Shown: positions 2,409-63,669 of the stretch, in pieces
Layout of the letters: every line of letters begins with the position of its first letter
How positions within the stretch are numbered: position 1 is the first letter of the stretch
Assembly: GCA_000004695.1 (NCBI GenBank)
Contig: CM000153.2
Location: forward strand, 2,112,001-2,176,000
Direction: 5' to 3'
DNA from: Dictyostelium discoideum
Taxonomy: Eukaryota
DNA length: 64,000 nt
Position numbers and translations under genes: made by a program
The notes under the pieces: model-generated
What the model saw: only the letters and a program-made list of their open reading frames with translations
Databases searched by the model: none
What the model was told of the DNA's origin: nothing

Positions 2409-3023
2409 CAAAAAAAAAAAAAAAAAATAGTCAATGAAAACTGAAGAATTCTTAGCCTTTTGATTTGTTTGAATTGAATTAGCAACAACTAACAATACGT
2501 TACACTCCTGTTCTTGCACTTGCTACAGATACATACAATAGTGAAAAATATTATTTAATCGATTAAATAATCAAATAATCAAATAATTCTTTGGGTGAAG
2601 ATGGGTTTTTAGGTATTGTTGATAGAGTTAAATTATGATGACTAATTAAATATAGTCCATTTAAATTTTAAATATTGGTCATAAAGATTATCCAGAGAAA
2701 ATAGTAGGATATTAGTAATAGTTTAGGTGATAGAGATTGTATTTGTGGTAATAGTACAAATAGTAGTTCAAGTGGATCAACAAATTTTAATTAAAAATCA
2801 CCTGTTAATAATATTGTTAGTAAATAAAATAAGAAAACATAGGTTTTTAATTTTGAGTATAGTGATGATAGAAATTTATCAATCAAAGAATATTTGAAAA
2901 AGAGGAGATAATAGATAAAAAAACAAAAAAAAAAAAAAATTATAATAAAAATAAAATATAACATTTTAAATTATAAATTTTAAATTAGAAACAGAAATAT
3001 TTTTATTTATAATGAATAAAATT

Positions 3024-51727: not shown

Positions 51728-54028
51728 AAACGAATTAAAGAGAATAAAAAACATAACATAGCGTCTAATACAAATAATACTCTTTTAACTAGTAGTAGTA
51801 GTAGTAGTGATAGTGATTCTGACCACGCCGATGAAGACAAATTAGAAGAACAGGATATTGATAATAATAATAATAATAATAATAACAATAATAATATAGA
51901 AGAAAATAAACCACCAGATTTAAATCAAAGTAGTAATAGTGATAGTGATAGTGAAGAATTAGAAACAACATTACAACCACCAACACCACCGCCACCTTAT
52001 TCAGAAGTTGAAAATAATATAGAACCACCACCATTACAAATTAGTTCAAGTGAAACTGACTCGCCAACACATTCATTAGATAGTAGTGACAATAATAGTA
52101 TTGTTGGTTCTGATATAAATAATAAAAGTGATAAAGAAGAAAAATCACCAACTCTTGCTAATAATAATAATAATAATAATAATATAGATAATAATAATAA
52201 AGATAATAGTCAAGATAATAATAAAGATAATAATAATCAAGTTAGTAAACCAATAACAGAGATTGAAATGAGTAGTTTTAGATCAAATCAAAGTGTTAGT
52301 CTTTTACATGATAGACAAAATAAAACATGGCTTTCAACAATTAAGAATCAATTGATACCAACATCAGGTGATGTTAATGCAGTATTTTCAGTGGTATTGG
52401 ATAATTTGGCAAATATAGCATCATTGGTTGGTATTTTACAAGGTGCCTATGGAATGCCAATTGATCTTGTAACAAAGTATTTTATAGCGGGTCCGGCATT
52501 GGCTGTTATGATTGGTAGTATAGCATTGTCGTGTTATGCCATCTATTTGGATTATCATGAAAAGGATCCATCTGTACATTATACTGCAATTCCAGTGGGT
52601 TTAGACGCACCATCAACTATTGGGTTACCTTTGTTAGTGATTGGTCCGGCTTATGCATTGGCAATAAAGAATGGTAGTTCCATACCGGATGCTACAAATA
52701 GTGCTTGGTTAGTTGGTTGCACAACCGTGTTTTTAATTGGCGCATTCAAGGTGTTACTAACGTTGATGAGTTTTGCACAGAAGCAATTCCATCCAGTGGG
52801 CAAAGCCGGCGCATTGGCAGGCATAGGTTTGGCATTGTTAGGCATGAATGAATTGTTAACCGTCGTTGAAGAGCCTGTAGTTGGTTGGGTGTCACTTTGG
52901 ATACTTTTGTTGATACTAATTCACAGACAGAATAAACATGGTGAAACGGTTGGAATTTCATTGCCATTCAATTTGTCGGGTGTTTTACTCTCTGCTTTGG
53001 TGGGTTCCGCAATCTATTATTTCATGGCAGGTGTACATATTTCCGTGGACCCAATGCCAAGTGGTGTCACTGATAACTACGAATTGACCTATCCACATCC
53101 ATCAAATATTTTCAAATCGTTCGCTGATGCAATTAAACAAAATATCTCCATTGCTATACCATATGCCATCCTTGTGAATATCGGGTCATTGACAATCACT
53201 GATAGTGCAAATAATGTCGGTAATGCATACAATACACGTTGGGTATTATTGATTGATTCATTTTCAACAATCATTGGTAGTTTCTTTGGAAGTACAGTTC
53301 AAACCACACCATACATTGGTCATACAGTTTTCCATACTAATTTTAAAGCACGTTCTGGTTATTCCTTAATTAGTGGTTTAATCATTGGTTTGGGTGGTTT
53401 CTTTGGTTATCTTGGTTTCCTCACTAAAATCTTACCAAAGCCAGCAATCATACCAATTTTCATTTTCATTGCATTTGAAATTTGTTCAGACACTTTCCAC
53501 AATACTAAAGGTATTAAACCACATCATTGCGCTGCTGTGGTTTGGAGTTTCTTCCCATCGTTATTCCAATTTTGTAATATTTACATTAGTCAAATCTCAC
53601 CAGTTTTATCAAATTGTATCACTGATCCAAATTCAGTGGCTACTACATTAGGTTTACAACCATCTTTAATTCAATCACTTGGTAATATAATGATAATGGC
53701 TCATGGTTTCATTTGTACTTCTTTGTTTTGGGGTACTTCTTTAGCTTATATTTTGGATAATCGTTTGAAGAAAGCTTCAATATTTTTAGCAATAACTGGT
53801 GTCTTAACTTTCTTTGGTGTCATTCATTCTGTCAATCCAAATGGTGAGGTTTATTTACCTTGGAATTGTGGTTCAACAATTCCTTATCAATGGACTGCTG
53901 CTTACTTTTTAATTGCTGCTATCACTTTTGCTTTCTCTTTCATTAAAGCAAAACCATTTCATTCAACTTTAACTGATGAAATTGGTGCAATTCAAGCTAA
54001 TGATAATTTTTATTCAAAATCATTTTAA
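51728..54028 (+). CDS. AzgA / NCS2-like nucleobase (purine) permease; main exon 52268..54028, with an in-frame coding-like 5' extension from 51728 that lacks an ATG (upstream exon not located)
   Basis: ORF 52268..54028 (586 aa) has at least 10 predicted TM helices. The block FGSTVQTTPYIGHTVFHTNFKARSGYSLISGLIIGLGGFFGYLGF resembles the AzgA/NCS2 signature G(T)STVTTYIES.AG...GGRTG. The 540 nt upstream are open in the same frame (stop at 51725-51727 and no ATG until 52268), are GC-enriched and read ...SSSSDSDSDHADEDKLEEQDID...TPPPPYSEVENNIEPPPLQISSSE.... This suggests an N-terminal cytosolic extension joined to an unidentified 5' exon. Confidence 0.6.
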   Translation, partial: KRIKENKKHNIASNTNNTLLTSSSSSSDSDSDHADEDKLEEQDIDNNNNNNNNNNNIEENKPPDLNQSSNSDSDSEELETTLQPPTPPPPYSEVENNIEPPPLQISSSETDSPTHSLDSSDNNSIVGSDINNKSDKEEKSPTLANNNNNNNNIDNNNKDNSQDNNKDNNNQVSKPITEIEMSSFRSNQSVSLLHDRQNKTWLSTIKNQLIPTSGDVNAVFSVVLDNLANIASLVGILQGAYGMPIDLVTKYFIAGPALAVMIGSIALSCYAIYLDYHEKDPSVHYTAIPVGLDAPSTIGLPLLVIGPAYALAIKNGSSIPDATNSAWLVGCTTVFLIGAFKVLLTLMSFAQKQFHPVGKAGALAGIGLALLGMNELLTVVEEPVVGWVSLWILLLILIHRQNKHGETVGISLPFNLSGVLLSALVGSAIYYFMAGVHISVDPMPSGVTDNYELTYPHPSNIFKSFADAIKQNISIAIPYAILVNIGSLTITDSANNVGNAYNTRWVLLIDSFSTIIGSFFGSTVQTTPYIGHTVFHTNFKARSGYSLISGLIIGLGGFFGYLGFLTKILPKPAIIPIFIFIAFEICSDTFHNTKGIKPHHCAAVVWSFFPSLFQFCNIYISQISPVLSNCITDPNSVATTLGLQPSLIQSLGNIMIMAHGFICTSLFWGTSLAYILDNRLKKASIFLAITGVLTFFGVIHSVNPNGEVYLPWNCGSTIPYQWTAAYFLIAAITFAFSFIKAKPFHSTLTDEIGAIQANDNFYSKSF

Positions 54029-55049: not shown

Positions 55050-55099
<50 letters not shown>

Positions 55100-55102
<3 letters not shown>

Positions 55103-57656
55103 TTAAGATTTAATTTTAAACATTTAATATTTTTTATTTCAACAATTTTAGTATTTTTATTATCATTTATTTTATCAAATTATATAAAAGCATTGTTATT
55201 ATCATCATTTGATATTGATGTTTATTCAAAATATATTAAATCACCGAATCAATCAATGATTAGTTATTTTAGAATTAAAGAAAATGCTGACTCATTTCAA
55301 TCAGACTCAAATGATGGTATTATAAAGAGTACAATTGATGAAGTTCAATTAAAAAATCAAATTGAGAATTATCAAGATAAAAATTTTCAATTAAAAAGTT
55401 TTTTAGTTAAAAATCAATTTTTTATAATATTTTTAATTTTACAAAGTATTTTATCAGTCATTTTAATACCAAATCTTTATTTCACCCCTTTTACTTTAAA
55501 TGTACTTGTAAATAGATTTACATTTGAATTTCTTCAACATCAATATATTATTTTAACCAAAATTAGATTATTTGAATATTATGGTATTTATTCTCAAAAT
55601 AGATTATTGGATGATCTATCATTATCATTTAGAAAGAAACAAAAAGCTTTATTAAAAAAGAATTTAAATTTCTTAAAATCATTTAAAAGTAAAGTTTTTA
55701 AAGATTTGGAAAAGAGAAAAGAAAATTCAATGCAAAATTGGATTACTTATACAACACTAGAATGGTTTTTAACTACATCCTCATTTGGTTATGATTTAAT
55801 GATTTACATTTATCCATTATTCATTTATAATCCTTTAATTTATCCAACTAATCAATTTAGAGGTTGTATTGTTGCTTATGTTAAAACATTAACAATTATA
55901 CAAAGAGTAAATATATAAATATTTTTTGAAATTTTATTTATATTTATATGTATTAAAATTTTTTTATTTTTTTTTATTTTTTTTAGTTATCAACAGAATC
56001 AGAAATTAAAGATTATATTAAAAGAATCCAACATTCTGTAGAATATATTGATGGTTGTATAATTGATTTAAAAAAGAGAGAGAAAAAAGGAGTTTTACCA
56101 TGTGTTGATTCAATTATTGGAATTTGTAAACATTTAGAAAAAACAATTTATTGTGATAAAAGTAATCCAAAAAATCATTTTATTTATAAATTAGTATCTG
56201 TACATCTCCAAGGTTTACCAGATGAAGATATTGGTGAATATAAAAGAAAAGTACTCTTAGATCATACTTTAGGTGCAATTGTTAATTTTTTTATGCCTGC
56301 AATTAGAAAACTAATAAGATATCATTACAGTTTAATTCCAATTGCTCCAAAAGAAATAGGTGTAAGTTTTTATTTTATATTCTATTTAATATTATTTATA
56401 ATATTAATTGCTAACAATAATATATTATTAAAATTAATTAAAATTGAATAAAAAAAGTTATGGAGAATACCAAATGGTGATGATATTTATAGATTTCATA
56501 TTTATTATTTTACATCAACAACAATGCATCCAATGGATTTACAAGAATTAGGTTTAAAAGAAATTGAATCTTGTAAAAAGAAAATAATTGAATTGGTACA
56601 ACCAGAGTATATTTTTTGTAAAGGTTATGAAAGTTTTGGTGATTTTATTAGAAGATTATTTAATGATCCTGAATTTCATTTCTCTTTCACAAAAAAGGGA
56701 AGAAGAGATGCAGTACATCAATTAAAAAATTCAATTACAAGAGCATGGGAAAAAAGTAAAGATTTATTTTATGAATATCCTGAAAGTCCAATTAATATAG
56801 ATTATTATACAATTTTCTCTGATGTTTCATATAATTATCAAGCTGGTCCATGGGATGGTGTAAATATTTTAATTAATTTTATTTTATTTTATTTTTAAAT
56901 ATAAAATATACTAATTAATTAATTTATATATGTAGAGTGAAAATCCAAGAATTTCAATTAATTTCGATAGAGAAATTACTTATTCAAAATTAATGAATAA
57001 AGGTTGTGCATTTAGAGAAGGTGTACCAGGTCATCATTTACAATTAGAAGCATTTAAAAATTCAAATTTAGATTTCTTTAGAAAAAATTTGGTATGTAAT
57101 AATATAATTTTAATTTAAATTAAAAACATTATTTATTATTTATTGTTTTTTTTTTTATATAAATATTTAGATTTCAAATTCATTTTTTAATGGATGGGGA
57201 TTATATGCAGAATTATTAACAATTGAAAATGGTTGGATGGATAATAAATGGGAAGTGTTGGGACATTATTTAATGGATTTAAGAATTAGTGCAAAATTAG
57301 TAGCAGATTGTTCAATTCATTACCAAGGTATTAAATGGGATACAAAAACTGCATGTTCATTTTTTGAAGAATTAGGTTTTAGCAATAGAGAAGCAGAATT
57401 AGAAGTAAAATGTATATCATCATTACCAGGAACTGGATTATCACAAAAAGTAGGTCAAGTTAAACTTTTAGAAATGAGAGAATTTGCAGAACAAGAATTG
57501 GGTGATAAATTTGATATTAAAGAGTTTCATAGTGTAATTTTAGAGAATGGTTCTCTACCTTTAGATATTTTGGCACAAGTTAATCAATATTGGATAATTG
57601 AAAAAAAACAAAATAATAATCCATTCCCTTCATTATTTAAAAATAAAACTAATATT

Positions 57657-57729
<73 letters not shown>

Positions 57730-57809
57730 TTAATAATAATAGTGGCAGTAGTGGAAGTAGTGGAAGTAATGTTAAACCCGAAAAATATGAAAGTTATAAA
57801 GATAAATAA
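55100..57809 (+). CDS. DUF885-family protein (bacterial-type putative metallopeptidase fold) with N-terminal TM extension; 5 exons, about 792 aa
   Basis: Exon 1 is 55100-55906 (ORF 55100..55918, MLRFNFKHLIFFISTILVFLLSFIL...YIYPLFIYNPLIYPTNQF...then AGA|gtaaat). Exon 2 is 55987-56361 (LSTESEIKDYIKRIQHSVEYIDGCIIDLKKREKKGVLPCVDS...IPIAPKEIG then gtaagt). Exon 3 is 56458-56859 (LWRIPNGDDIYRFHIYYFTSTTMHPMDLQELGLKEIE...AGPWDG then gtaaat). Exon 4 is 56936-57091 (SENPRISINFDREITYSKLMNKGCAFREGVPGHHLQLEAFKNSNLDFFRKNL then gtatgt). Exon 5 is 57171-57809 (ISNSFFNGWGLYAELLTIENGWMDNKWEVLGHYLMDLRISAKLVADCSIHYQGIKWD...poly-N...). The E.PGHH.Q motif and the (W/Y)..E...G(W/Y) and H..G block are diagnostic for DUF885 (Pfam PF05960). 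Confidence 0.75.
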
Positions 57810-58032: not shown

Positions 58033-58567
58033 TTATTTTTGAATCATTGGTTTAATTGGAGTAATTGGATGTTCAATCTCTAAAATTGAAGGATCAGGAT
58101 TTTTGATAAAAATTTGTTGAAAGAATGAAATTAAATTAAATACAATAGTATTTGCATTTGCAATTTCTTGGATGTCACCTTTTTCAATATTTGGTCTTAA
58201 TAAACTAGGGCCATATACAATTGATAAATTACTTGGAGTCATTAAATTTTCTTTAGAGTTTAATGAAATATCATGTAATAAAGATATACATTCATAAAGA
58301 ATTGTATATTGGAAATTTGGAATTGAATTAACAACTGCTTTTAATGCTGCTGCTTTTTCAGTTGCATCTGTAATATTATTTTGAATTCTATAAAATTCTG
58401 TAATTCTATTTAAAAATAAAAAAATATATATATAATTAATATTAATTAAAATATATAATTATTAATAGTATTAATAAATATTTAATACATACTGTTCATC
58501 TGGAATAACTGAATGAGGTAAATATCTAAAATATGATTTGAAAATACATGCAACTATAGTTTTTTTG

Positions 58568-58624
<57 letters not shown>

Positions 58625-59619
58625 GTTAATAAAATATTAATAATTTAAAATTAAAATTAAGTATATATATATTTACCTTCATAAATCCAATTTGGATCTA
58701 AATCTTCAACTGAAGTAATTAAACCTTTATCGAATTTTGATTGAATTTCATCGATTAAAAATTTTGATCCGCTAATCCTAAAGATTCCTTCAATATTTTT
58801 TCTTCTTGAAATGAATTCAATGCAAACTTTTAAAAGATGTGGAATACCTTTTTCTTTGGCAGTTTTAAAAGATTCTTCCAATTCTACAGCAAAGAAAATG
58901 GTTGGAATTTCTGCTGAAACTGTTATCATCTCCTCTTCTTTTGGTGATGATTTCATTGCATCAAGTACTGTAATTGGTGTATTATAAATACCTTGAGTTG
59001 TGTATGAAAAGAATTCCAATACTCCTACTGCTGGTAAAATTACAACACTATAATAAATAATAATAATAAATAATAATAAAATTAATAATTGAAAAAAAAA
59101 AAAAAAAAAAAAAAGAGTTGATTTAATTATGTTTACATACCCACTAACACCTTTTGCTACACCTTTGACAAAACCACCCAATCCATTGTTTTTGGCACCT
59201 AGATATGGTTGTTCAACAATACCTTTAGCACCATTAACAACACCAACACCAATACTCCATACACCTCTTAATGCACCATCAACAAATGTTTTTGGTTTTA
59301 CTGGTGTAGTTGATGTTGATGATGATGATGGATTACTAGAACTACTATCAACTGATGAATTATCGTCAATTTCATTATTTTCTGCAACTTTTGATACTTG
59401 TTGATCTGTATTTGCTGTTGTTGTTGTTGTTGTTGTTGTTGTTGATATACTCTTTAAATTTCCAAAAAAGGTATTTGATCCTCTTTTTTTTTTTTTTTTT
59501 TTTTTTATTTTAATATTGGATATTTTTAATTAGATATTTTTAATTAGATATTTATTTTTTACATACTTTGAAAAATTATCACTTCCTTTTCTATATACAT
59601 TTTGATCTTTACTCTCCAT
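58033..59619 (-). CDS. RhoGAP-domain protein with N-terminal Gly-rich VPS13-type motif, 5 exons
   Basis: Exon 1 is 59567-59619 (MESKDQNVYRKGSDNFS then AA|gtatgt). Exon 2 is about 59129-59478 (K-GSNTFFGNLKSISTTTTTTTTANTDQQ...FVDGALRGVWSIGVGVVNGAKGIVEQPYLGAKNNGLGGFVKGVAKGVSG then gtatgt). Exon 3 is about 58690-59038 (GVVILPAVGVLEFFSYTTQGIYNTPITVLD...EKGIPHLLKVCIEFISRRKNIEGIFRISGSKFLIDEIQSKFDKG...). Exon 4 is about 58496-58557 (VACIFKSYFRYLPHSVIPDEQ, phase-2 donor CA|gtatgt). Exon 5 is 58033-about 58412 (ITEFYRIQNNITDATEKAAALKAVVNSIPNFQYTILYECISLLHDISLNSKENLMTPSNLSIVYGPSLLRP...). GIFR.SG supplies the arginine finger, and NLSIVYGPSLLR matches the N(L/M)A(I/V)VFGP.L(L/M)R RhoGAP signature. Confidence 0.8.
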
Positions 59620-60314: not shown

Positions 60315-61545
60315 ATGTCAGAAAAAGAAACAATTGAATCATTAAAAGAAGAGATTGAAATACATGATAGAAATAAAAGTAATAAAGGATATTTACCAAA
60401 AGAATCATATAACCAAGTTACATACGATTATTCAAAAGAAGAAGAACAAGCTAAACTTGCACATTTACCAAAAAAATATTTAAAAGAATCTGAAAATGAT
60501 GATAAACATTTTATAGACCCACTAGCTAATTTAACACCAGCTCAAAGAAAAGTTTATGAATTAAGAAAGAAATTAGTAAGTTTTTTTTTTATATTTATTT
60601 TTATTATATATATATATATATCTTTCTCTTTCTCTTTCTCTTTCTCTTTCTCTTTCCTCTCTCTTCCCTCTTTCTCTTTCCCTCTCTTCCTCTTTCTCTC
60701 TTCCCTCTTTCTCTTTCACTCTTTCTCTTTCACTCTTTCTCTTTCACTCTTTCTCTTTCACTCTTTCTCTTTCACTCTTTCTCTTTCACTCTTTCTCTTT
60801 CACTCTTTCTCTTTCACTCTCTCTTTCCCTCTTCCTCTTTCTCTCTTTCCCTCTCTCTCTTTCTCTCTTGCCCTTTTTTTTATTTTAGAAATATTAATTT
60901 TTTTTTTTTTTTTTTTAAAAAAAGGAAACAACAAAAAGTGTAATATATAAAAGTGTAGTTGATGAACATAAAAGGATACATCAAGGAGCACAAGATGAAA
61001 TTGAAGAAAAGAAAAGATTATATAAAGAGAAAATTAAACAAGAAGAAGAAGAAATGAAGAAACAAGGATTAGATCCTCAAAAAGAAAGATTAAAAAATCA
61101 AATAGCCGAAGAAATTAAACCAAACAAAAAAGAGAAAAAGAAAGATTCAATAGTAAAAGATAAAAGTAATACATATTCAGATGAACATGTTTATAATTCC
61201 TATAAGAAAAGGGTGAAAGAAATGGAGAAATTTCATAATAGTGAACATTTTAAAAAGGTTGTTTCAAATGAAGATGTCAAAGAATCTGGTGATTCAATTA
61301 ATAATAATAAATATGAATATGGTAAATCAATTGAAATACCACGTGATAATATTAATGCAATGAAACAAGAGTTATTGAAAAATCAAGAAAATCGTCGTAG
61401 CTTTAAAAGAAAATCATTTAAAGAAGAAGAAGATATCAACTATATCAATGAAGAAAATAGACTTTTCAATCAAAAAGTTTCACGTGCTTATGATAAATAT
61501 ACTGTTGAAACTAGACAAAATTTAGAAAGAGGTACAGCTCTTTAA
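60315..61545 (+). CDS. syf2: Pre-mRNA-splicing factor SYF2 (p29), 2 exons
   Basis: Exon 1 is 60315-60575 (MSEKETIESLKEEIEIHDRNKSNKGYLPKESYNQVTYDYSKEEEQAKLAHLPKKYLKESENDDKHFIDPLANLTPAQRKVYELRKKL then gtaagt). Exon 2 is 60925-61545 (acceptor aaaaaaag; ETTKSVIYKSVVDEHKRIHQGAQDE...DINYINEENRLFNQKVSRAYDKYTVETRQNLERGTAL stop). The C-terminal INYINE.N..FN.K..R.Y.KYT.E(I/T)..N.ERGTA(L/V) is the conserved SYF2 signature. The interior of ORF 60315..60950 (FSFSFSF...) is intron read-through. Confidence 0.88.
60618..60860. repeat. CT-rich minisatellite (about 14-nt unit TCTCTTTCACTCTT, about 8 good copies plus degenerate flanking copies) inside the syf2 intron
   Basis: ctctttctctttcactctttctctttcactc... 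seen at 60618-60860. It is polypyrimidine on the + (sense) strand. Confidence 0.85.
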
Positions 61546-61650: not shown

Positions 61651-63669
61651 TTATTTATCAGCAGTTGTGGTGGTTGTTGTTGTTGGTTCAATTGAATCAG
61701 TAGTAGTAGTAGTAGTAGTAGTAGTAGTTTGATCTGAATCAGTTGGTTTAGAATGAATATATTCACATTTATCACCTTTGAAACATTTATTATGAATGAA
61801 ATATATACAATTTGTTGTAGTTGGATTTTTCTTTTTTTTATTTTGATTTCTATTTTTTTTATTTTCACCAACATTTGCTTCATCAGAGGAGCGTTTTTTT
61901 GTTGATTTACCACCAGTTGCTCTTGAACCAGGGCCCCAATTTTCTTTTGGATTTGGGAAATATTTTGGAACATCAGGATGTTCACCTTTTGCTAATGGAT
62001 TTTTAGTGAAATCAATTTTATTTTTTGGTTCTTGAGATAGAATATGATTGGCAGGTGAATCTGGACCAAGATTTTTTGGAGGATGATCCTTTGCATAGGT
62101 TCTAAAGATATCCCAAAGGAATTGAAATGGTGCATCGGTTTTAATTGATGGTAAAACATGAGAGGAACTAACTTTGTAACCACCATTTAAGATTGCACTT
62201 TTGATCATTGCAGTTGGTGGAGTTGATAAATGAAGTGTATGAGTGAAATGATCAGATTTGAAATAAAACATTTGATCTGGTAATTCATCGATAACCGATG
62301 TTAAAACACCATACATACGACGAGAGGTATTGAAAGTTGTTGGATTCTTCTCGAGGAAGGATATAGCTTGTTTACAAAAGTCAACATTGTGGATTCTTTT
62401 AGCCCAAAATGGACCGGCGAATTGGTATTGTTTGGTGCAATGTTGGCAATGAGAGCCCACCTCTTTATTCAATAGTGGTACTTTGTATTTGATGGAATTG
62501 CCCTCCTCTTTTACCACACCAGTTGGTTGAATATGAAAACTACCACAACCAATACAACTGAAAATATTGGCCATCTTTGAGAGGGCTTTCTTGGCCTCCA
62601 ATGGTGAAGAATAGACACGAACAAACACACGTACATAGAAATCTACACTTAGGGAGAGTATTGGTACAATGTGTCTTTTGTAACGATTGGCATGTTGTTC
62701 AATTGAGTGTAGAAGAATACGCAAGCCCATCTCATGGCAAAAACCAGCACGATGAACTGGCACACTTTGATATTTATGAAAACAAGCCTCTGGATAACTA
62801 CCACATAATACAGCGGTATCAGTGGCGGTGACACATAGCAAACCACCATCTGCAACCGCTTGGACTGCACTATCCAAAAATTGGGTTGGTGCGCCGTATG
62901 GATCGACATCGACGACGTCGTATTGTTTACTATGTGTTCTATTCTCCATCATTACCATTGTGGCATCACCTAGATTTGGTTTAATACGTTCCTCTGGTAC
63001 ACCATTGTATTCTCTATTCTTTACGATTGAATCCACAGCAGTTTGTAAAATATCATTGGCTAAAATATAATCCAAATCATCTCCAATCTCTTTAGCATAA
63101 CGAATTGATCTTAATCCAGTAGCTGCCAATGCCTCTAAAACCCTAATCTTTTTAAATGGTTTACCACGTTCTAAACATTCTTTCTTTCTCTCTTCAATGA
63201 ATAATTTAATCATTAAAATTGACATATCTCTATTAAATTCTTGAACTGGATTATAAAATACTTCATTTTGATTATTATATAAAATTGTTGCTGAATTTTC
63301 AATAACTGTTACAATATTTGATTGTTCTTTAGTTTCATTATTTTCTTTTTCTTTTTGTTGTGTTTCATCTACTGATGTTTTATTAGTTGCAGTGGTTGTT
63401 TCTAATGTTGACTCTTCTTTTGGTTGTTCAACTACTTTAACTTCATTCATTTTAACATCTTCCATTTCTTTTATTATATTACTTATATTTTTTGATTTTA
63501 AAATTGAACTACTACTGAATGATAAAAAATTATTATTATTACTTTTTAAATGATTAATTGATGTTGAATTGATAAAAATACTATTACTATTATTATTTTG
63601 GAAGAATTTATTTGGATTTTGAATCAATAAACTATTTTTAACAATTTTATTTAATCGATTTGCTATCAT
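61651..63669 (-). CDS. trm1: tRNA (guanine26-N2)-dimethyltransferase TRM1 with C-terminal CCCH zinc finger, single exon, 672 aa
   Basis: ORF 61651..63669. The blocks FYNPVQEFNRDMSILMI, VLEALAATGLRSIRYAKEI, DVVDVDPYGAPTQFLDSAVQAVADGGLLCVTATDTAVLCG, CHEMGLRILLHSIEQHANRY and IVPILSLSVDFYVRVFVRVY are collinear with the Trm1 family. The C-terminal CIYFIHNKCFKGDKCEYIH is a C-x8-C-x5-C-x3-H finger like that of human TRMT1. Confidence 0.92.
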   Translation of the reverse strand: MIANRLNKIVKNSLLIQNPNKFFQNNNSNSIFINSTSINHLKSNNNNFLSFSSSSILKSKNISNIIKEMEDVKMNEVKVVEQPKEESTLETTTATNKTSVDETQQKEKENNETKEQSNIVTVIENSATILYNNQNEVFYNPVQEFNRDMSILMIKLFIEERKKECLERGKPFKKIRVLEALAATGLRSIRYAKEIGDDLDYILANDILQTAVDSIVKNREYNGVPEERIKPNLGDATMVMMENRTHSKQYDVVDVDPYGAPTQFLDSAVQAVADGGLLCVTATDTAVLCGSYPEACFHKYQSVPVHRAGFCHEMGLRILLHSIEQHANRYKRHIVPILSLSVDFYVRVFVRVYSSPLEAKKALSKMANIFSCIGCGSFHIQPTGVVKEEGNSIKYKVPLLNKEVGSHCQHCTKQYQFAGPFWAKRIHNVDFCKQAISFLEKNPTTFNTSRRMYGVLTSVIDELPDQMFYFKSDHFTHTLHLSTPPTAMIKSAILNGGYKVSSSHVLPSIKTDAPFQFLWDIFRTYAKDHPPKNLGPDSPANHILSQEPKNKIDFTKNPLAKGEHPDVPKYFPNPKENWGPGSRATGGKSTKKRSSDEANVGENKKNRNQNKKKKNPTTTNCIYFIHNKCFKGDKCEYIHSKPTDSDQTTTTTTTTTTDSIEPTTTTTTTADK

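Follow-up and report, generated by a model that had tools for sequence, protein, structure and literature searches.

The DUF885 proteins (PF05960; IPR010281 in InterPro) belong to the Peptidase_MA clan of Pfam (PMC12572635) and figure among the zinc-site annotations of a structural survey of zinc metalloproteins (PMC4539273). Literature searches yielded no characterised DUF885 enzyme; the solved structures are those of bacterial members, namely, a Colwellia 'lipoprotein' (3O0Y) and proteins of Arthrobacter (3IUK) and Shewanella (3U24). Outside the family, the closest fold is that of the tubulin tyrosine carboxypeptidase MATCAP/TMCP (KIAA0895L), in which the zinc site consists of an extended HExxxH motif and the Glu of an 'EEG' motif (PMC10499314). 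The Dictyostelium discoideum member, DDB_G0278355, is a published candidate for horizontal gene transfer (HGT) from bacteria (Sucgang 2011, PMC3188802, Table 2, after Eichinger 2005), where it is reported to have an orthologue in D. purpureum, is set within a bacterial clade, and has its function given as 'Unknown'. The gene also appears as an HGT candidate in a D. giganteum preprint, and a full-text search for the locus identifier returned the 2011 genome paper only.

The window analysed here, a stretch of 64,000 nucleotides of D. discoideum DNA, contains a DUF885 gene at positions 55100-57809 that is almost certainly DDB_G0278355, given that a single DUF885 gene per dictyostelid species is present among the best 150 representatives of the 6851 library matches (E<=0.001). 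The encoded protein is 97% identical to proteins of D. discoideum isolates, and the family, the organism group, and the inference of bacterial origin are the same as those published, with no difference in kind. The transfer proposed in the initial annotation is, then, not new: it belongs to the 16-18 candidate transfers that have long been on record for Dictyostelium, and finding it again by itself adds little. What the published accounts lack is a description of the helices at the N-terminus, of the spread of the gene across all dictyostelid groups, of the introns that the species have in common, and of the residue replacements, to which we turn below. Dictyostelids hold two forms of the transferred gene, one in which all invariant residues are kept, and another in which residues presumed to bind metal and substrate are gone while the fold is strongly conserved. 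This natural contrast is a tractable one for asking what is done by an uncharacterised family whose bacterial members number in the thousands and whose three crystal structures are orphans, and also bears on the repurposing of a transferred bacterial enzyme in a eukaryote.

When GT/AG candidates near the four predicted junctions were tested, one stop-free gene model survived. It extends on the + strand from the start codon at 55100 to the end of the stop codon at 57809 and consists of five exons that jointly encode 792 amino acids. Exon 1 (55100-55906, aa 1-269) encodes the N-terminus, a pair of hydrophobic helices, and a variable loop as well as the start of the DUF885 domain; it is followed by exon 2 (55987-56361, aa 270-394), exon 3 (56458-56859, aa 395-528), exon 4 (56936-57091, aa 529-580), where a degenerate version of the family signature lies, and exon 5 (57171-57809, aa 581-792 and the TAA stop). 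The introns, each GT-AG and each in phase 0, are 80 nt (55907-55986, between R269 and L270), 96 nt (56362-56457, between G394 and L395), 76 nt (56860-56935, between G528 and S529), and 79 nt (57092-57170, between L580 and I581) long, with a GC content of 0.05-0.07, as measured with approximate intron boundaries, against 0.23 in the coding sequence. The four canonical AT-rich introns, the host codon bias, and the poly-Asn tail, all noticed at the outset, are thereby confirmed: GC3 is 0.085, a fully host-like composition, and the poly-Asn run is encoded by (AAT)23 at 57660-57728. A poly(A) tract (55052-55099) adjoins the start codon upstream, in an AT-rich 5' region with a GC content below 0.1; the run takes in the first base of the start codon and thus totals 49 nt (55052-55100).

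The assignment to DUF885 withstands a direct comparison with the Pfam profile, which the 792-aa product matches at E=4.8e-79 (267.8 bits, with a cut-off of 32.4), far beyond chance. The match (aa 160-716; 55577-57578) covers profile positions 6-530 of 532 and spans all four introns, and the alignment to a family HMM made of bacterial homologues starts at residue 102. No NCBIfam model matches the protein. Among PDB sequences, it matches 3o0y at E=1.4e-40, and a profile search at E<=10 retrieved three DUF885 entries only and no remote peptidase homologue. In the AF2 model (pLDDT 87, pTM 0.81), the predicted fold is that of the solved DUF885 structures, that is, the thermolysin-like/neurolysin-like catalytic (gluzincin) fold.

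In the initial description, the domain is preceded by some 270 aa that an additional exon encodes. The boundaries of the Pfam match contradict this description: it begins at aa 160, inside exon 1, more than 100 residues of which are DUF885 proper (the first ~110-140 residues of the domain), leaving a true extension of ~105-130 aa. A separate transcript at 55100-55906 is effectively excluded because the DUF885 profile crosses the exon 1/2 junction unbroken and because T. lacteum and C. fasciculata have the equivalent region in one uninterrupted ORF.

The introns are widely shared among dictyostelids. Intron 1 occupies the same position in the four other species in which it was mapped, D. citrinum, D. 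firmibasis, D. purpureum, and P. violaceum, and the tblastn match in H. album, where splice sites are unmapped, is interrupted at the equivalent site. Intron 2 is common to D. citrinum, D. firmibasis, and D. purpureum and is absent in P. violaceum, with a frame break at the equivalent site in H. album. Introns 3 and 4 both recur in P. violaceum and the group-4 species; for intron 3, the exactly homologous site (MDR|SAK) also carries an intron in A. subglobosum, and for intron 4, the reading frame of H. album is broken at the equivalent site. The gene order DUF885-RhoGAP-SYF2-TRM1 is kept in D. firmibasis and D. citrinum, so that the gene is integrated in a eukaryotic genome with eukaryotic neighbours conserved in three species. 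Another neighbour, the ORF at 52268-54028, has no match in Pfam, NCBIfam, or the PDB sequences. The initial view of a domesticated resident gene is upheld by the introns, the host-like composition, and the conserved neighbour order. Bacterial contamination, or an erroneous joining of 55100-55906 to the rest of the gene, could draw on the bacterial affinity of the family and nothing more; both versions of such an artefact are refuted by the introns, the composition with its poly-Asn tail, the synteny, and the continuity of the profile, and we give them practically no credence.

The N-terminal extension differs from its original description, too. Where a single transmembrane helix had been described, the protein has two hydrophobic ones, ~70 aa apart. 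Helix 1 (55121-55204, aa 8-35) is signal-anchor-like, with a Kyte-Doolittle 19-mer peak of 2.43, and is modelled by AF2 as a helix at aa 2-37 (pLDDT > 90 for residues 11-30); helix 2 (55415-55483, aa 106-128) has a Kyte-Doolittle peak of 2.40, is modelled over the same residues with a pLDDT of ~91, and ends in a conserved IPNLY motif immediately ahead of the DUF885 domain. Hydrophobicity scoring picks out the second helix in D. purpureum, P. violaceum, and T. lacteum as well, and reading of the A. subglobosum sequence (unscored) indicates a similar segment ahead of an LPNLY motif. The very N-terminus is conserved as well (MLRFNFKH in D. discoideum, MLRVNLKH in P. violaceum, and MLKRLNFKH in T. 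lacteum), and the T. lacteum gene has, upstream of its mis-annotated start, the same layout, in which MLKRLNFKH is followed by a transmembrane segment, 5 aa, a second transmembrane segment, and IPNLY. In all, the two hydrophobic helices are conserved in four dictyostelids.

Bacterial DUF885 proteins, in contrast, are intronless and have one signal peptide or lipobox; in place of this single N-terminal signal, the D. discoideum protein has the helix pair, and it has the poly-Asn tail in addition. An N-terminal hydrophobic segment as such is not peculiar to the amoebae, as had been supposed: a signal-peptide-like N-terminus is present in 207 of 227 bacterial and metagenomic homologues, and a lipobox-like motif in 56, but a second hydrophobic segment is rare (3/227). 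Helix 2 occupies the position of the bacterial signal peptide, with helix 1 and the loop being the real addition. Hydropathy and the positive-inside rule predict that such a hairpin, given its basic N-terminus, most likely leaves the DUF885 domain facing the cytosol, although the charge difference across helix 1 is small.

How the gene came to be in dictyostelids can be addressed by its distribution. Named homologues are present in all four dictyostelid groups (1-4), and a search with a profile of the conservative eukaryotic clade yielded P0061 alone. In agreement with the initial characterization of DUF885 as overwhelmingly bacterial, nearly all of the 6851 matches are prokaryotic or metagenomic. 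In an unrooted neighbour-joining (NJ) phylogeny, the dictyostelids and the sequence P0061 form a clade with 100% bootstrap support, and the chytrids form a separate clade, also with 100% support; the dictyostelids excluding P0061 are supported at 59%, and the nearest bacterial neighbour of the dictyostelid clade at 8%. Being unrooted and giving no supported bacterial sister group, the NJ tree points to neither a donor nor a direction of transfer. The eukaryotic distribution is nevertheless patchy and non-monophyletic, and a dictyostelid clade that stands apart from the chytrids fits an ancient transfer; to this extent, the original proposal holds, its novelty excepted.

The chytrid proteins, from Boothiomyces, Quaeritorhiza, Polyrhizophydium, Gorgonomyces, Globomyces, and Podochytrium, belong to the same Pfam family and are products of eukaryotic genes, but are two- or three-domain tandems that mostly keep HE...PGHH...EGW. 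Because the chytrids make up a separate, fully supported clade of such tandem-domain proteins, the phylogeny points to independent acquisitions in the two lineages. The presence of DUF885 in these six genera could, alternatively, reflect vertical descent of an old gene of Amorphea with many losses and no transfer into the dictyostelid stem, and reports of DUF885 in Talaromyces (a fusion protein; PMC8478523), in arachnids (a venom protein; PMC7682650), and in a gastropod transcriptome (PMC11359391), as well as the location of P0061 on an AT-rich, eukaryote-like contig of SRR23962323, are compatible with such a scenario. It has to contend, however, with the separation of the chytrids from the dictyostelids; with the nearest neighbour of the chytrids, which is a tandem-domain Amycolatopsis protein (34% support); with the best non-dictyostelid matches, which are single-domain bacterial or metagenomic proteins at ~200-213 bits per domain compared with 103-138 for chytrids; with the very small number of eukaryotic sequences among the library matches; and with the published placement of the gene inside a bacterial clade (PMC3188802). 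Vertical descent thus appears quite improbable.

In the D. discoideum protein, a number of residues that are otherwise invariant in the family are replaced. The REGVPGHHLQ motif, from which the family had been recognised, is present as translated at 57014-57043 (+ strand; aa 555-564), and compared to the PF05960 consensus HExxPGHHxQ, only the first His differs, being Arg; all other defined positions are kept. Downstream, NGWGLYAE (57189-57212, + strand; aa 587-594) corresponds to the helix with the consensus EGWxLYxE, in which the first Glu has become Asn, and the second is kept; neither signature is intact. HE is found in 283 of 295 occurrences of the motif, and His at position 555 and Glu at position 587 are both 100% conserved in the same 255 bacterial and metagenomic sequences. 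The same two residues occur in 3o0y and 3iuk, which are the PDB members aligned, as well as in the sequences of C. fasciculata, A. subglobosum, P0013, and P0061. In the D. discoideum protein and its relatives, position 555 is R or K and position 587 is N or A, with K555 and D587 in H. album. Seven further invariant positions are replaced (R619, R622, G628, R661, Y662, Q668, and Y672), and conserved residues that are kept comprise E556, P559, G560, H561, H562, Q564, G588, W589, Y592, E594, D626, H630, W636, and H700.

By motif spacing and by analogy with gluzincins and MATCAP, H555, H561/H562, and E587 are putative zinc ligands, so we infer that two of the three (555 and 587) have been replaced in the D. 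discoideum lineage, where the catalytic-type E556 and H561/H562 are accompanied by Arg and Asn at the putative first-His and Glu ligand positions. As a guess, R619, R622, R661, Y662, Q668, and Y672 could form a substrate-binding site such as that of carboxypeptidases. Relative to the literature, what is new is that the copy in the D. discoideum lineage has lost family-invariant residues that probably bind zinc. MATCAP/TMCP and the M32 carboxypeptidases have no detectable sequence homology to the D. discoideum protein, and their catalytic mechanism is probably not common to it because the first His and the ligand-type Glu of these clan MA gluzincins are absent.

Despite these replacements, the domain is under strong purifying selection (dN/dS ~0.09), with dN/dS of 0.096 in the comparison with D. 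citrinum, 0.091 with D. firmibasis, and 0.131 with D. purpureum. Such constraint shows that the domain is functional and has been one argument for an active, membrane-anchored zinc metallopeptidase, possibly endo-lysosomal or phagosomal, that would use E556, H561, H562, and E594, with the replacements only retuning specificity. The 14 retained residues, the gluzincin fold, and the extracytoplasmic location of bacterial relatives speak in the same direction. Both 555 and 587 are lost, however, although invariant in bacteria, in the solved structures, and in the conservative dictyostelids; so are another seven invariant positions, among them those of three Arg residues and two Tyr; and the predicted hairpin is at odds with a lumenal domain. 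On balance, we consider an active peptidase of this kind doubtful, and an active, lumenal version of the phagosomal hydrolase suggested in the initial annotation lacks support given the predicted cytosolic domain and the replacement of two putative zinc ligands and other invariants.

The reading that we favour, if with some reserve, is that of a domesticated, membrane-anchored, peptidase-like protein of bacterial descent that is probably catalytically altered or inactive. Its ancestor would have been a bacterial secreted protein or lipoprotein of the DUF885 family with an M32/MATCAP-like gluzincin metallopeptidase fold, which would have come into the dictyostelid lineage ahead of the crown radiation. 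The gene has since been fully domesticated, with spliceosomal introns, a host-like GC3, a poly-Asn tail, and conserved synteny. The pair of hydrophobic helices is likely to anchor the protein, with the domain on the cytosolic face of the membrane. The otherwise invariant residues have been replaced in the lineage that gave rise to D. discoideum (groups 3 and 4, with P. violaceum, and H. album), and because this happened while the fold was kept under constraint, the canonical function of a zinc carboxypeptidase has most likely been lost. The present role is probably that of a membrane-tethered, peptidase-like binding module or of an enzyme with altered chemistry; the retained E556, H561, H562, Q564, E594, D626, H630, and H700 may form another metal site and support some activity.

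The comparison among dictyostelids bears on how the altered form arose. The conservative form, with every family-invariant residue, is found in C. fasciculata and A. subglobosum, and the degenerate form in H. album, T. lacteum, P. violaceum, and group 4; no named dictyostelid species was seen to possess both. The gene tree conflicts with the species tree, in that H. album joins groups 3 and 4, and A. subglobosum joins group 1. A more specific version of the favoured reading would explain this conflict by an ancient duplication into 'catalytic' and 'degenerate' paralogues followed by reciprocal loss. Under this more tentative scenario, which we regard as possible rather than probable, the transferred zinc carboxypeptidase-like protein, held at the cytosolic face by the two-helix hairpin, has become a pseudo-peptidase, and the loss of metal- and substrate-binding residues under constraint would imply a new non-catalytic role, in binding or scaffolding. 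Derivation of the EukProt sequences P0005 and P0013 from one species would prove paralogy, but their tree positions argue against it.

The constraint on the domain does not extend to the low-complexity C-terminal tail (57606-57806, aa 726-792) that contains the poly-Asn run. The tail has a dN/dS of ~1.1 in the comparison with D. citrinum and is thus unconstrained, and its length differs among D. discoideum isolates.

The DUF885 gene is embedded in DNA of the extreme AT-richness usual in Dictyostelium, and the extent assigned to it by the initial annotation is correct. With the start codon set at 55100 (ATG) and the stop codon at 57807-57809 (TAA), trying the GT and AG candidates near each of the four predicted junctions left a single in-frame model without stops, namely, five exons on the forward strand (55100-55906, 55987-56361, 56458-56859, 56936-57091, and 57171-57809) separated by introns of 80, 96, 76, and 79 nt, each GT-AG, each in phase 0, and with a GC content of about 0.05-0.07 (intron boundaries are approximate for these GC values). 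Residues 160-716 of the 792-aa product align with positions 6-530 of the 532-position Pfam profile PF05960 (DUF885) with E=4.8e-79, and the product also matches a solved structure, the 'lipoprotein' 3O0Y (E=1.4e-40). The motif REGVPGHHLQ (57014-57043, +), the poly-Asn tail encoded by an (AAT)23 run (57660-57728, +), and the host-like composition of the coding sequence (GC 0.23, GC3 0.085) are likewise real. The headline reading, a DUF885 gene of bacterial origin in an amoeba, was, however, published in 2005 and again in 2011: the gene already figures in Table 2 of Sucgang et al. (2011; PMC3188802) among candidate bacterial transfers, a list that goes back to 18 candidates in the 2005 genome paper, and a 2026 D. 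giganteum preprint gives the same listing. The central interpretation, therefore, is not new.

Across 1.84 billion representative proteins, searched exhaustively with HMMER, 6851 DUF885 matches reached E<=0.001, headed by dictyostelids of all four groups (P. violaceum, T. lacteum, H. album, A. subglobosum, C. fasciculata, and two EukProt entries), with one copy per named dictyostelid species among the best 150 representatives of the 6851. Identity to the window protein is 97% for proteins from two D. discoideum isolates, 88% for D. citrinum, 84% for D. firmibasis, 72% for D. purpureum, and 60% for P. violaceum. Six chytrid genera carry two or three tandem DUF885 domains, and the domain is also present in Talaromyces (PMC8478523), arachnids (PMC7682650), and a gastropod transcriptome (PMC11359391). 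The homologue P0061 is hydrophobic in its N-terminal region and keeps the HE/EGW signature; its gene is intronless (728 aa; contig L003, 5805-7991, Logan SRR23962323) and lies on a 96.7 kb contig of 27% GC with eukaryote-type neighbors including ESF1 (RRM) and ankyrin-repeat proteins. In a neighbor-joining tree (206 sequences, 562 columns, 100 bootstraps), all dictyostelid sequences and P0061 form a clade with 100% support, with P0061 placed as sister to every dictyostelid DUF885; the chytrids form their own 100% clade, closest to a tandem-domain Amycolatopsis protein (34% support); and no bacterial sister group of the dictyostelids is supported in these 206 sequences (8%). With the dictyostelid and chytrid clades thus apart, eukaryotic DUF885 is polyphyletic and patchy, a pattern more in keeping with several transfers than with widespread vertical inheritance, and the tree supports no donor.

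All four introns are present in D. citrinum, D. firmibasis, and D. purpureum, and introns 1, 3, and 4 in P. violaceum. The H. album tblastn match breaks or shifts frame at the intron 1, 2, and 4 sites, with a further break at the site of an annotated D. purpureum intron (all at tblastn-level positions), and A. subglobosum has an intron exactly at the intron-3 site (MDR|SAK); the T. lacteum and C. fasciculata genes have none. Because intron positions are this deeply shared, the gene was in place, and already had introns, before crown dictyostelids radiated.

The DUF885 fold is that of gluzincin metallopeptidases. Fold comparison places M1 aminopeptidases, ACE, and thermolysin among the relatives; the Foldseek agreement is weak, with ACE and neurolysin coming next among its matches. 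Pfam assigns DUF885 to the Peptidase_MA clan (PMC12572635), a spider DUF885 protein yielded M32-like folds by FFAS (PMC7682650), and a survey of zinc metalloprotein structures (PMC4539273) includes the InterPro DUF885 entry among its zinc-site annotations. In MATCAP, the HExxxH motif is extended and the third ligand comes from an 'EEG' motif (PMC10499314); the DUF885 consensus, HExxPGHH followed 25-26 residues on by EGW, has the same logic with typical gluzincin spacing. From this logic and spacing, we infer H555, H561 or H562, and E587 as putative zinc ligands and E556 as the putative catalytic base.

Compared with 255 bacterial or metagenomic sequences, the window protein and the related proteins of group 4, P. 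violaceum, T. lacteum, and EukProt (P0005) have replacements at two of these positions (555 and 587) and at further family-invariant ones. The bacterial H555 (100%) is replaced by R or K, E587 (100%) by N, A, or D, R619 (98%) by I, T, M, or A, R622 (98%) by K or S, G628 (100%) by S, R661 (99%) by C, Y, M, or F, Y662 (95%) by I or T, Q668 (97%) by T or I, and Y672 (97%) by Q or E. H. album, read off genomic DNA, has K555 and D587. This lineage keeps E556, P559, G560, H561, H562, Q564, G588, W589, and Y592, as well as E594 (S in T. lacteum), D626, H630, W636, and H700. The bacterial residues are retained in C. fasciculata, A. subglobosum, P0061, and another homologue, P0013, except that the C. 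fasciculata motif lacks one Pro; of 295 copies of the motif across all retrieved sequences, 283 have HE. Scores against the bacterial family HMM are 474 bits for the window protein and 565-638 bits for the conservative dictyostelid copies. This degeneration is a modest new observation, worth a biochemical test.

The domain is under strong constraint, with Nei-Gojobori dN/dS of 0.096 (D. citrinum), 0.091 (D. firmibasis), and 0.131 (D. purpureum); the corresponding values for the N-terminal 129 residues are 0.39, 0.23, and 0.50. The simplest interpretation is a fold maintained for a function no longer reliant on the canonical metal- and substrate-binding site; an altered active site built on the retained His and Glu residues is possible. 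The poly-Asn tail differs in length between D. discoideum isolates (shorter by 22-28 residues in P0008 and P0009) and has a dN/dS of ~1.1 against D. citrinum, with lower values against the more distant D. firmibasis and D. purpureum; it behaves like a coding microsatellite free of constraint.

The DUF885 gene tree (L001, L002, and L004-L009) is at odds with the accepted species tree: H. album (group 2) clusters with groups 3 and 4; A. subglobosum, also of group 2 and with its residues intact, clusters with C. fasciculata of group 1. This split is mirrored by the replaced residues and by introns 1, 2, and 4, and the degenerate residues and the breaks at these intron sites that H. album shares with groups 3 and 4 hint at an ancient duplication followed by reciprocal loss; acceleration with long-branch artefacts is a possible explanation as well. 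Three public orthologue models appear to be wrong: that of T. lacteum (L004, about 2770-3000) starts ~77 codons late and misses both hydrophobic helices, that of C. fasciculata (L006, 3001-7832) is fused with the upstream Vps52 gene, and that of H. album (L009, 3001-5196; 530 aa) omits parts of the coding sequence, the KEGIPGHH motif among them.

The initial annotation treated exon 1 as an extra module of about 270 aa. This view did not hold: the Pfam match starts at residue 160, a bacterial-homologue HMM begins to align at residue 102, and exon 1 largely belongs to the DUF885 domain. Nor is exon 1 a separate transcript, because its equivalent and the remainder form one unbroken reading frame in T. 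lacteum, C. fasciculata, and the P0061 contig. The true N-terminal addition is ~105-130 residues and holds two hydrophobic helices, with Kyte-Doolittle peaks of 2.43 (residues 8-26) and 2.40 (residues 108-126) and, in the AF2 model, helices at 2-37 and 106-128 with a disordered loop (38-76) between them. Conservation extends to the N-terminus and both helices: P. violaceum begins MLRVNLKH, and 5' of the mis-annotated T. lacteum start lie MLKRLNFKH, a helix, a 5-aa loop, the second helix, and IPNLY. A signal-like N-terminus is not peculiar to the amoebal protein, being found in 207 of 227 bacterial homologues (with a lipobox-like motif in 56), but a second hydrophobic segment occurs in just 3 of the 227. 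Helix 2 sits at the position of the bacterial signal peptide, whereas helix 1 and the loop are the new part. By the positive-inside rule, a hairpin of two helices whose N-terminus is basic would put both that terminus and the DUF885 domain in the cytosol, a low-confidence topology that does not favor the proposed lumenal phagosomal hydrolase. The conserved two-helix anchor, again a modest new observation, likewise merits a biochemical test.

Downstream, the order RhoGAP(-), SYF2(+), TRM1(-) is identical in D. firmibasis and D. citrinum; synteny with these species, not a Pfam match on the window, identifies the RhoGAP-like (58033-59400, -) and SYF2-like (60315-61545, +) genes, and the TRM1 tRNA methyltransferase (61651-63669, -) matches PF02005 with E=2.5e-122. 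The H. album orthologue is also adjoined by a RhoGAP gene, but at the opposite side. The upstream neighbor is an intronless 586-aa ORF (52268-54028, +) with many hydrophobic helices and no match among Pfam, NCBIfam, and PDB sequences; its composition (GC 0.36 overall, locally up to 0.46, and GC3 0.26, compared with 0.23 and 0.085 for the DUF885 coding sequence) is odd for the D. discoideum genome.
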